From the NCBI RefSeq assembly GCF_022846255.1, contig NZ_AP025682.1: 64,000 nt of DNA. One strand, written 5' to 3'. Every line of letters begins with the position of its first letter. Within the stretch, counting starts at the first letter, position 1. Below the pieces are notes generated by a model that saw nothing but the letters and a program-made list of their open reading frames with translations, searched no databases and was not told the DNA's origin. Below are positions 3,632-28,588 of the stretch, piece by piece. This stretch comes from Escherichia coli. Lineage in GTDB: Bacteria > Pseudomonadota > Gammaproteobacteria > Enterobacterales > Enterobacteriaceae. The translations under genes were made by a program, and so were the position numbers.

Positions 3632-3801
3632 ATAACCTCCATGATTTATCGAATCTTATGTTCGATTTGAACGTTATACGCTGGTTTATTTTGATACCGT
3701 TGATGAGATCAAAGATCGGGTGAATTGATTAAAGATAAGCCAGATGGACGTATAGACAAGGATTATGGTTTTATTTGTCATACAAATAAATATAATAGGC
3801 G

Positions 3802-3866
3802 CTTCCGATGTAGGCCCGTATTCTTCGCCTGTACCACGGGTCGGTTTTAGTACAGGCGTTTTCTTT
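3802..3866 (+). ncRNA. rydC: RydC small regulatory RNA
   Basis: cttccgatgtaggcccgtattcttcgcctgtaccacgggtcggttttagtacaggcgttttcttt matches the RydC sequence as recalled (one possible substitution); TATAAT -10 at 3791..3796; ends in hairpin plus U-run; lies between ydcA and cybB. Confidence 0.7.
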
Positions 3867-3875
3867 AAATATCCT

Positions 3876-4406
3876 TCAGGAACGTTTACGCGGCATCATG
3901 CGTAGAAGTGTGTTGTCCTTCCAGAAATAGTGGTGTGCCAGTGCAGCCGCAGCGTGCAACCCGATGACAAAATATCCCAGATTCGCCAGCGTTTCATGCC
4001 ACGACTTTAAGCTATCAACCCGTTCGAAATTGGCCTCTGAAGCGTAAGGCATCGTCAAACCAAACGCAAACCACGGGTTGCCCCGGTTATACATCATCAC
4101 CAAACCAATCACTGGCAGCGCAATAAACAGGAGATAAATCACCAAATGGCCCAAATGCGCCAGTCCCGTCATCATCGGTTTTGGCTTAGGTATAATCGGC
4201 GGGGTTGGGCATTTCAGCCTTAACAAAAGACGAACCACCATCAGTACGAGAATTGAGATGCCACAGGAAACATGAATCATGTTGATGAGGGGCCGATCGC
4301 TACGTGGGAAGAAACCACGAAACTCCATTGCGCAATACGCTACGATAACCAGCAAAAAGACCAGCCAGTGAATGCTGATTTGTAACCTTGAGTATTTATT
4401 TCCCAT
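3876..4406 (-). CDS. cybB: Cytochrome b561, 176 aa
   Basis: Start taken at internal ATG (MGNKYSRLQISIHWLVFLLVIVAYCAMEF...) with aggaa RBS, giving the 176 aa length recalled for CybB; multi-TM haem-binding protein. Confidence 0.9.
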   Translation of the reverse strand: MGNKYSRLQISIHWLVFLLVIVAYCAMEFRGFFPRSDRPLINMIHVSCGISILVLMVVRLLLRLKCPTPPIIPKPKPMMTGLAHLGHLVIYLLFIALPVIGLVMMYNRGNPWFAFGLTMPYASEANFERVDSLKSWHETLANLGYFVIGLHAAAALAHHYFWKDNTLLRMMPRKRS

Positions 4407-26348: not shown

Positions 26349-26502
26349 GATTCATTTCGCAAATGTGCTGACATTTTCCCCTCTAATCATTACAATTTAA
26401 ATTTATGAATTATGCATTGATAATCGCTATTATAATATCGTTCCCTGTGCATTATTATCAGTTTTTCTGGTATTAAAAGACTGGGCGCTAATAGGAGATG
26501 CA

Positions 26503-27003
26503 ATGAACCACGCAATGTTTCCTGGCATAGTTCTAGCCTGGATTATAGGTATGCCGCTGGGAATTGGTGCATTTATTGTAGGACTGTCTTGTGCAATTGC
26601 AACTGGCTATCTGAAAGATAATAGCATCATAAAGAAAGATACCATTATAGGTATCGTTTTTTCAGGAATTTTTGTCTTGACTATCAACAGGCACAAGTCA
26701 GCGGATTACAGATATCATTATTACATTACAGTTTACTCTGCATGGTATCGCCTACCATTTTTGCCACATTAAAAGCAGTCGGAATTATTCTGTCTATATA
26801 CTATTAACAGCTCCAGGGTCTATTGCTGTCCTCACCACGCGTCGCTTTCATAAGGCATTACTTATCGCCGTAACGATATCAATAACAATATCAGGCGTAT
26901 GGTTATTATATTTTCTCGACAGAGCCCCAGCGCCGACAATCGTCCTCTTATTTGCTGTAGCATTTCTTTTCGCGCTGATAATAATCAATTTTCGGAAACA
27001 ATA
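26503..27003 (+). pseudogene. Frameshifted, 5'-truncated ABC-3 family metal-transporter permease (ZnuB/SitD/MntB-like)
   Basis: Frame 1 (MNHAMFPGIVLAWIIGMPLGIGAF...IIGIVFSGIF) resembles the central part of ZnuB-like permeases; after a stop, two other frames carry the C-terminal part (...LLYFLDRAPAPTIVLLFAVAFLFALII); no N-terminus and no adjacent ATPase or binding-protein genes. Confidence 0.5.
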
Positions 27004-27283
27004 ATCTCAACAGTAGAATAAAGAGGCAAATCAATCATTACATATATAAGATGGTGCTAATATTGTACCGCCTTTAAATTGAATTTTATCCTTTCACCCT
27101 TACACAATTTAAGGAATGCAGATGACTATTTTATCAGCTCCCAGCCTTTTTCCTGGTAATCGAAAACTTGAAAATCATTAACTCTAAGAAATTCTGCCAA
27201 ATCGTTGAAATTACTTTAAATTAGACTCGAACAAATCAACCCCTGATGGGGCTTTTACTTATCAATTTAATCGTGTAGATATC

Positions 27284-27331
27284 GACCTCCATCTGCCCGC
27301 CTCAGATTCGTACCTGGTGGAGGTCTTTTTT
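27284..27331 (+). terminator. Putative intrinsic terminator inside the AT-rich remnant
   Basis: gacctcc ... ggaggtc stem with an inner atctg/cagat stem, followed by T6; no annotated gene upstream. Confidence 0.4.
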
Positions 27332-27392
27332 CGTTGCCTCTTTCCCCCTTTAGTTCAGTATAAAATCATCAAACTAATGCTGTTCACACTAT

Positions 27393-27572
27393 TTACCTCC
27401 AGCATTCTATATAAATAATAGAAATAAAAACCCCAATACATAGTGCATTGGCATGACCAAACATCAATGCCATTATACTCGCCTCTGTTAAATACTCGCT
27501 AGTTAATATGATAGGCACGCATGATATAACAATCCATATGCTAATACATAAATACACCAGTATTTTTCTCAT
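27393..27572 (-). CDS. Hypothetical 59 aa hydrophobic small protein (unverified)
   Basis: ATG-initiated ORF in ~30% GC DNA translating to MRKILVYLCISIWIVISCVPIILTSEYLTEASIMALMFGHANALCIGVFISIIYIECWR with two predicted hydrophobic segments; weak RBS; one codon under the ORF-track cutoff. Confidence 0.2.
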   Translation of the reverse strand: MRKILVYLCISIWIVISCVPIILTSEYLTEASIMALMFGHANALCIGVFISIIYIECWR

Positions 27573-28279
27573 AGTCAGTCCCTGTGATTAACAACAAGGC
27601 ATAGTTAAACATATTTCACATTCAAACGTAAACATTATTAATAAAATTCTGTCAATCAAACTGACATCACGATTCAAGCCCTCTTCAAACTGAAGGTTAG
27701 AGCAGCGTAGAACATTTCAAAACAATACACTAAAAAAATACCCGAACAAAAAACTTAATTCTTTTTTATTGTGAACTTTAGTAATTTTGCCATGCAACTC
27801 TTTATTACATTTAGGCCTATCTTATTTCATGGCAACGCAGATACAGGACCATTTCTTGTGCTATGGATAAGTAATAAGCTAGTTACATCTTTTTAAGAGA
27901 ACCATTTTCACATATCAAGATATCATCACCACCCACAATGAATTAAGTATTTTTCTTATTCTTTAGATTAGATGCGTAATGAATCCCTAACTCCATTCGG
28001 GCGTTATGGCTCTTTCATTTGAAATACATTCATATCCAATGTAATATTTCCATGCGCAAATATAACTACCGACCATACTCATCATTTATTACAGAGAATT
28101 ATTTTATTCACCGAAAAGTTTCACAAAATATCCCCTGATAGAAAACTAAAAAACACTGCATAATATCGCTATTCTGGCACTTGCGAAAAATTATATTCTG
28201 CACCTGTTGTAGCGTTCTATTTCTCCGCCTGGCAACGAATGCACAATGTCCGCCACAGTTTCTGTTCTAATTTCTTCCT

Positions 28280-28588
28280 GTGTTACCGCATCCTGTACGG
28301 GTAGCGCAACACCAGCATGCTAAGCAAGGCTTTCCCATCAGATTTCACTACGACTATTTGGGAGCGAGATGGAATGCAGCAGTAAAACGTGCTGGTATTC
28401 GCCGCCGTAATCCGTACCATACGCGACATACTTTTGCCTGCTGGCTGTTGACGGCAGGAGCGAACCCGGCATTTATAGCCAGCCAGATGGGGCATGAAAC
28501 TGCGCAGATGGTGTATGAAATTTACGGTATGTGGATTGATGACATGAACGACGAACAGGTAGCCATGTTAAATGCGCGGTTATCGTAG
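28280..28588 (+). pseudogene. 3' fragment of a phage-type tyrosine integrase (intR-like remnant)
   Basis: Only the catalytic C-terminus is present (RRRNPYHTRHTFACWLLTAGANPAFIASQMGHETAQMVYEIYGMW with the conserved His/Arg/Tyr residues); the upstream part of the frame is not integrase-like; immediately 5' of ttcA, where intR lies in K-12. Confidence 0.6.

Follow-up and report, generated by a model that had tools for sequence, protein, structure and literature searches.

The described small membrane proteins that come closest to the gene treated here include the accessory (moron) membrane proteins of lambdoid phages, the Hok/Gef toxins (PF01848) with their Sok RNA (RF01794), and the small membrane toxins and pinholins with two transmembrane (TM) helices, exemplified by GhoT/OrtT and the S21-type pinholin of phage 21. 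The gene is a 59-codon open reading frame (ORF) on a stretch of Escherichia coli DNA 64,000 nucleotides (nt) in length (contig NZ_AP025682.1, assembly GCF_022846255.1), hereafter called the window. It is likely to be a genuine, unannotated gene of lambdoid prophages, encoding a small membrane protein of two helices, that has been stranded beside a broken hok gene in a prophage remnant. The original prediction placed a 59-codon ORF at these coordinates and described its ribosome-binding site as weak; both statements were borne out, the ORF lying on the minus strand with AGGGA 6 nt ahead of its ATG.

27393-27572, minus strand: the 59-codon ORF (ATG at 27572-27570, stop codon at 27395-27393), the B2-type allele of a two-TM family in lambdoid prophages
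27579-27583, minus strand: weak Shine-Dalgarno-like AGGGA, read from the sequence, which aligns with the AGGAGG/AGGGGG of the phage-type allele

The ORF product is MRKILVYLCISIWIVISCVPIILTSEYLTEASIMALMFGHANALCIGVFISIIYIECWR. It had been proposed with no homology evidence, a situation now superseded by homologues found with both tblastn and HMMER. The suggested tBLASTn check of conservation, run against phage genomes, gave a gapless match over the full 59/59 codons in vB_EcoS-813R8, 640R1 and PhiR42_1, all three of them temperate Escherichia phages (41% identity, E 5e-11). This phage-type homologue, MKNALQFLFVAFWLFVSCMPIIFTARYMEKVDVLILIFGYINALFLGVFMAVMCIEYWR, has 59 codons, with the same length and stop position as the window ORF, and its ATG is preceded by AGGAGG with a 5-nt spacer. 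The homologue family consists of two clades only, about 41% identical and all from E. coli/Shigella, as judged from HMMER run exhaustively over 1.84 billion representatives, together with another word-indexed search, one with a profile, and a scan of IMG/VR. No third clade was found by profile searches of a set of 5.8 billion proteins, IMG/VR and the phage records. It took tblastn against phages, or exhaustive HMMER, to reveal the divergent clade; the word-indexed protein search with the window peptide returned near-identical E. coli copies only, and a nucleotide search of the ORF region against phages and plasmids at 65-70% sensitivity returned nothing. The phage-type homologue is present on 80 viral contigs of IMG/VR and in 1,568 of the 5,426 complete E. 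coli genomes, and the B2-type in 1,044-1,045 of the same genomes (at least 95% identity). Since the overlap of the two sets is uncounted, the combined share of the family lies between 29% and 48% of genomes.

The comparison of the two clades carries most of the evidence for coding. Over their 59 codons they share 60% DNA identity with no gaps, and the differences are distributed as 25, 16 and 31 over codon positions 1, 2 and 3, with 14 of the 49 differing codons being synonymous. The BLOSUM62 score between the clades is 156 in the ORF frame, compared to at most 62 in any of the five other frames. By the Nei-Gojobori method, the proportion of synonymous differences (pS) is 0.71, which is saturated, and that of nonsynonymous differences (pN) is 0.33, giving a ratio of nonsynonymous to synonymous change (dN/dS) of about 0.21; when an equal number of substitutions was placed at random without creating stops, not one of 164 placements reached a ratio this low. 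Among the IMG/VR loci, the 59-codon ORF is intact in 80 of 80. A total of 19 residues are invariant across the clades, including W13, S17-C18-x-P20-I21-I22-x-T24, F38-G39, N42-A43-L44 and E56-x-W58-R59, while G47 is near-invariant and completes a G39-xxx-A43-xxx-G47 motif in helix 2. The frame thus keeps its length and phase between divergent homologues, and synonymous changes are in excess, as expected of a coding gene. On this pattern, the family appears to be, or to have been until recently, a real gene for a protein predicted to form a two-TM hairpin.

The ORF had been singled out initially because of its length in AT-rich surroundings. The surroundings are indeed AT-rich, with 34% G+C measured over the 1.3-kb stretch 26990-28280, but the view that 59 codons is unusual there did not stand up: when 26990-28280 was shuffled 2,000 times with dinucleotides preserved, the longest ATG ORF was at least 59 codons in 46% of cases (median 57), and ORF length was discarded as evidence of coding. 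It is composition, not length, that sets the ORF apart. Its grand average of hydropathy (GRAVY) is 1.41, against 0.11 +/- 0.39 in shuffled ORFs of at least 50 amino acids (aa), only 0.1% of which are equally hydrophobic, and any ORF with two TM-like windows occurs in about 1% of shuffles. The two hydrophobic segments noticed earlier were recovered both as two Kyte-Doolittle 19-residue windows and as two helices in the AlphaFold model (residues 2-24 and 30-58), a two-helix hairpin with a mean predicted local distance difference test score (pLDDT) of 78.6. The N-terminus of the product is basic, the loop between the helices is short, small or polar residues are conserved in each helix, and the C-terminus consists only of E-x-W-R. 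The proposal of a candidate small membrane protein therefore stands in its substance, strengthened by the gapless homologue, the coding pattern and the predicted hairpin, but without the length argument on which it had leaned.

A more sceptical view would be that there is no gene on the minus strand at all, and that the region holds a chance ORF in AT-rich DNA, a non-coding conserved block, or a real gene on the opposite strand. Shuffled sequence readily provides ORFs of this length, RefSeq, through its Prokaryotic Genome Annotation Pipeline (PGAP), is silent at the ORF, and the depositors of phage genomes have annotated an antisense ORF of 84-86 aa ('hornerin' or hypothetical; minus strand of phage loci L009, 3407-3664, and L008, 3407-3658). 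Against this view, the two clades agree in ORF length, start and stop while sharing only 60% of their DNA sequence, the codon-position bias, the dN/dS of 0.21 and the frame-specific BLOSUM score all favour the ORF frame, and the hydrophobicity is far beyond the composition null. The absence of a gene is very unlikely on these grounds, the codon pattern and dN/dS having, as far as sequence comparison can speak, already largely refuted it. The antisense 'hornerin' ORF was rejected as a real gene, with 2 stop codons in the window and a BLOSUM62 score of 62 against 156; given this interrupted frame and poor score between the clades, it is probably a mis-annotation.

Several observations weigh against a genuine gene of this kind. 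RefSeq/PGAP calls no gene at the ORF in either clade in the rows examined, there is no family match in Pfam, NCBIfam, PHROGs or PADLOC, a sequence search of the PDB gave no solved relative, and Foldseek against BFVD returned only generic helical hairpins, the best with an E-value of 2. With two clades, the conservation is essentially that of one deep comparison, in which dS is saturated. Recent polymorphism carries no clear signature of purifying selection, although in B2 the ORF varies less than its flanks (p = 0.03). The within-clade changes are mostly nonsynonymous: 6 of 6 in the phage-type clade, and in B2 two nonsynonymous variants (V6M, H40Y), one synonymous and one frameshift, for a total of 8 nonsynonymous against 1 synonymous, which are small numbers. 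Disrupted alleles of the ORF do occur. In the window copy, the Shine-Dalgarno sequence (AGGGA) is weak, and no promoter-like site was seen on the minus strand from 27573 to 28097/28098. Finally, what is said here of function is inferred from anatomy.

Some GenBank submissions do label the ORF as 'hypothetical protein'. A text search of the literature found the ORF peptide strings in none of the papers covered. The known small proteins YnaL (57 aa; L001, 7608-7781) and YnaN (15 aa; L004, 1003-1050) are annotated nearby by RefSeq, at sites in the dbpA-zntB region outside the remnant, which indicates that the missing 59-codon ORF reflects the lack of a curated family and not a size limit. Codon 40 (27453-27455 in the window) shows a His/Tyr (CAT/TAT) polymorphism that is found independently in both clades, as H40Y in the B2 strain GN02050 and as Y40H in the phage-type clade, where His is present in 63 of 71 loci.

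The ORF belongs to a module that is shared with the phages and is followed in the window by the remains of a hok gene, which the original prediction had not noticed. The parts of this module, in order of coordinates, are:

27240-27335, minus strand: hok pseudogene remnant (codons ~24-51 and the first 3' stem-loop), identified by blastn and alignment to L009 4011-4110
27336-27355, no strand assigned: deletion junction, where ~290 nt are gone (L009 ~3719-4010 is without a counterpart in the window)
27356-27392, minus strand: 3' flank, the homologous counterpart in this module of the ~40 nt past the stop codon in phages
27573-27716, minus strand: leader of the module, ~61% identical to the ~145 nt upstream of the phage-type gene (blastn of 27716-27356 against L081 2866-3218)

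The hok remnant begins 55 nt after the stop codon of the ORF, on the same strand. A sensitive blastn search of 27250-27750 gave 77-80% identity to annotated hokD and Hok/Gef coding sequences over 27252-27338, antisense to the plus strand, and the remnant is 79% identical over 63 nt to the hok gene of phage 813R8. Its translation, ATKKDLHQVRI*GGQMEVDIYTIK, compared to HokD, TRKDLCEVRIRTGQTEVAVFTAY, shows an in-frame TGA at 27302-27304 and a change of the conserved Cys to His, and the Pfam HOK_GEF match is below the cut-off (13.9 bits, E 0.043). Homology to hok is clear, and an intact frame with the N-terminal TM helix and the Cys is lacking. Upstream of the remnant, L009 3653-3718 aligns with window positions 27420-27356 (67-70% identity), at which point the ~290-nt deletion has removed the hok promoter, tac, the mok start, sok and hok codons 1-23. 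Correspondingly, the Rfam sok/hok-leader model (RF01794) finds nothing in the window at E-values up to 10, whereas it scores 112 bits in the phage locus. The deletion, the TGA and the change of Cys to His are common to all 16 B2 sequences compared.

The wider region is 99.8% identical to that of E. coli O127:H6 E2348/69 (phylogroup B2), and the gene order is nifJ, ompN, uspF, a metal-ABC permease pseudogene, the AT-rich stretch, a DUF1627 fragment, a C-terminal integrase fragment, ttcA and dbpA. The same architecture occurs in 14 further RefSeq genomes that were inspected, including EC958, UTI89 and Nissle. As ttcA is the Rac attachment site in K-12, the region represents a fixed Rac-like prophage remnant of the B2 lineage. 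Its other parts are:

26405-27004, plus strand: frameshifted metal-ABC-transporter permease pseudogene (RefSeq and ORF fragments), bounding the remnant on the uspF side
27717-28110, no strand assigned: AT-rich stretch with no ORF and 8.4 variable sites per 100 nt among the 16 B2 sequences
28111-28266, minus strand: C-terminal part of a nin-region protein of the Ren-like/LygF type (match to PHROG 142, 'Ren-like exclusion protein', at E 4e-7)
28230-28345, minus strand: DUF1627 fragment, a RefSeq pseudogene in E2348/69 and other B2 genomes
28358-28588, plus strand: C-terminal fragment of a tyrosine integrase, a RefSeq pseudogene beside ttcA, at the end of the Rac-like remnant

The permease pseudogene, at ~40% G+C and situated between uspF and the hok remnant, is a pseudogene in every B2 genome inspected. 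The stretch 27717-28110 has no homologue in phages, plasmids or phage-type loci, and is the most polymorphic part of the remnant, with 8.4 variable sites per 100 nt compared to 2-4 elsewhere. The following segment, 28111-28266, is free of stops over 52 codons, is unannotated by RefSeq, and is matched in blastn by LygF/DUF977/YdaW genes from phages of Escherichia. With this segment, the early-region side of the phage can be recognised in the remnant. An 87-aa called protein (P0006, from a 12.6-kb NCBI contig) fuses the integrase fragment (...QMVYEIYGMW) to residues 14-59 of the ORF product (IVISCVPIIL...). As the two fused parts are on opposite strands in the window, one strain would have undergone an inversion or deletion, unless the protein stems from an assembly chimera.

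Within this setting, it is about evenly balanced whether the window copy, although a member of a real family, is now a dead relic, bereft of its transcription context, silent in B2, and intact only by the shortness of the time elapsed. Every neighbour in the remnant is a pseudogene or a fragment, the upstream phage genes are gone, and the weak Shine-Dalgarno sequence and the lack of a promoter-like site on the minus strand (27573-28097) fit the same picture, as do the B2 variants already described (V6M, H40Y, one synonymous change and the frameshift of strain A20). A 180-nt ORF, moreover, usually stays open by chance at 1-2% divergence. On the other side, no part of the remnant varies less than the ORF, which has 2.2 variable sites per 100 nt where the flanks have 3.3-8.4 (16 B2 sequences, binomial p = 0.03), and the least-variable 180-nt windows all overlap it. 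It is intact in 15 of the 16 B2 copies, strain A20 having the frameshift, the protein cluster adds over 1,300 contigs with an intact copy, and the ORF keeps 19 of the 19 family-invariant residues. The original prediction had named stops or frameshifts in related strains as grounds for refutation, and these were met with only to a small extent: apart from the one frameshift among 16 and an IS1 at the 3' end in one strain, the copies are intact. In that strain (2020C08-115; L006), IS1 lies two codons ahead of the ORF stop, at the equivalent of window position ~27399, and explains the database variants ending ...IECWGDAANLLI; truncated protein variants are also on record, and these and the IS1 add to the case for a relic. 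Because its transcription context has been lost in the remnant, the window copy, though still intact, is probably poorly expressed or silent.

The intact phages reveal the arrangement from which the remnant derives its parts. In vB_EcoS-813R8, the gene order is dicC/cro, cII, O, LygF, four hypotheticals, the homologue, hok/mok ('host killer protein'), rem, ydfU, rusA and Q, so that the homologue is the last gene of the nin region, upstream of Q. The next gene on the same strand is hok in 70 of the 72 loci with sufficient downstream DNA, its start codon being 258-260 nt after the stop of the homologue, and the Rfam sok/hok-leader model matches L009 at 3770-3945 (112 bits), 93 nt after that stop. 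The clades become alignable at the stop of the gene before (...NVLR*), which lies about 145 nt ahead of the ATG, and their homology gives out about 40 nt past the ORF stop. This delimits a cassette of ~360 bp, made up of the ~145-nt leader, the ORF itself and a tail of ~40 nt. Phage-type loci show hardly any variation in the ORF and the ~100 nt ahead of it, and their flanks are mosaic. The cassette is either present or absent at a fixed slot between the last conserved nin-region gene and the hok/sok locus, its homology ending short of the hok leader, and related hok-bearing prophages without it hold other tiny hydrophobic ORFs in the same slot. This behaviour is cassette-like and moron-like.

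Two of these other occupants were seen on the minus strand, upstream of the hok leader. In FORC_029 (L003) there is an unannotated 27-aa peptide, MTWPEAFITVGIAMAVALVVYSICRWG, whose start overlaps the preceding stop codon (ATGA), and in strain 1428 (L002) an unannotated 30-aa peptide, (M)VLVLKCALAITAVMAIYCLAIVLMDRLSD, with GGAGG ahead. By tblastn, the 27-aa peptide is matched in 93 phage records, among them VT2-Sakai and EDL933-Stx, and it is widespread in Stx and lambdoid phages. It was considered as a relative of the 59-aa family and rejected (hhalign probability 0.1%).

The proximity to hok raises the question of whether the product is a partner of Hok, acting as a membrane modulator, an immunity factor or a coupler to phage development, in which case hok/sok would be a module of three parts. 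The gene could then encode a third hok/sok component, either modulating or giving immunity to Hok, or serving as a second effector made from read-through transcripts. Such a role is suggested by linkage: hok follows in 70 of 72 loci at the fixed distance of 258-260 nt with no terminator-like site in between, the two are adjacent even in the B2 remnant, and both products are inner-membrane peptides. That linkage, however, may mirror the recent common ancestry of a single cassette, since the block is 98-100% identical with no synonymous variation. Many hok-bearing phages are without the gene and have other mini-ORFs or nothing in the slot, and in B2 the ORF is intact though hok has been dead since before B2 diversified. 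A partnership in either form is accordingly improbable, and decidedly so.

The original prediction had also raised a type I toxin-like peptide as a possibility, and this fared poorly, there being no toxin family, no antisense RNA, no structured leader, and an exposed Shine-Dalgarno sequence in the phage. In its fullest form, the idea would be that the ORF encodes a membrane-damaging toxin, of type I or similar to GhoT, that is held in check by an unrecognised antisense or trans-acting RNA. The product is small and very hydrophobic, it is located in a prophage directly beside a true type I toxin locus, and helix 2 has a conserved small-xxx-small-xxx-small motif (G39/A43/G47) of the kind found in pore-forming helices. 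The evidence on the other side is broader. The product has two TM helices, compared to the single helix typical of type I toxins, and it matches no toxin, holin or defence family in Pfam, NCBIfam, PHROGs or PADLOC; for HOK_GEF (PF01848) in particular, neither clade has a match at E-values up to 10. The antisense-RNA check proposed earlier was made with Rfam, which has no match over the ORF in either the window or the phage. The leaders are neither significantly structured nor conserved in structure (z-scores -1.3 and +1.3, covariation term -0.49 kcal/mol), the Shine-Dalgarno sequence of the phage allele is strong and unpaired, and no promoter-like site was found on either strand of the phage module. 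The ORF also persists intact, without any partner, in about 1,000 B2 genomes. A toxin is therefore unlikely.

The reading preferred here, that of a genuine gene for a small membrane protein of lambdoid prophages, leads to the following proposal. The gene would be transcribed with the delayed-early (pR-type) nin transcript, which would run on into hok. This is suggested by a consensus scan of L009 3150-4250, which yielded neither a promoter nor a terminator for the gene; the scan, which covered both strands for promoters, is insensitive, since it also missed the known ones of hok and sok. The product would insert into the inner membrane as a hairpin with both termini inside (N-in/C-in). Helix-helix contacts may be made via the invariant S17-C18-x-P20-I-I-x-T24 and via G39-xxx-A43-xxx-G47, allowing self-association or the binding of a membrane protein of host or phage, and the protein might in this way act as a phage accessory (moron-like) membrane factor.

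If translated, the product would represent a small membrane protein family that is encoded in at least 29% of complete E. coli genomes and is unannotated in RefSeq, and would provide a concrete example of the annotation gap for small proteins, one in which depositors mis-annotate the opposite strand. Its fixed position directly upstream of hok/sok offers a starting point, open to testing, for understanding how the type I toxin loci of prophages fit into phage transcription; the hokW-sokW paper is silent on any upstream ORF. The anatomy of the B2-specific remnant at ttcA is also clarified, as a stranded mini-gene together with a hok pseudogene that was stripped of sok and its 5' half by one deletion.

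Among known systems, the symporter small subunit DUF4212/TIGR03647 is likewise a two-TM mini-protein, and accounted for the only profile matches, which were weak and concerned B2-type members and not the phage-type. Its scores of 13.0 and 13.8 bits fall far short of the respective cut-offs (30 and 26), it was rejected as compositional, and no symporter gene adjoins the ORF. Hok/Gef with Sok shares with the ORF a small hydrophobic inner-membrane peptide, as predicted for the ORF product, and the same prophage region. The ORF differs in having no sequence similarity, two helices instead of one, and no mok-like overlapping frame, Sok-like RNA, fbi/tac folding or structured leader. GhoT/OrtT and the S21-type pinholin are similar in size (~60 residues) and in their two predicted TM helices, to which helix 2 of the ORF product adds the small-xxx-small-xxx-small pattern. 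In contrast to these, the ORF product has no Pfam match at E-values up to 10, and for holins and pinholins specifically none in Pfam or PHROGs; it has no highly charged C-terminal tail, and its gene lies in the nin region and not in a lysis cassette. The ORF also resembles the moron or accessory membrane proteins of lambdoid phages, with which it shares a short AT-rich cassette, variable at one slot, encoding a small membrane protein in temperate E. coli phages; it departs from that class in lacking a detectable promoter or terminator of its own (in the insensitive scan) and a PHROG or Pfam family. The gene is new, an uncharacterised addition to the small membrane proteins that phages encode, a broad class within which it stands out by a complete absence from reference annotation combined with its prevalence.

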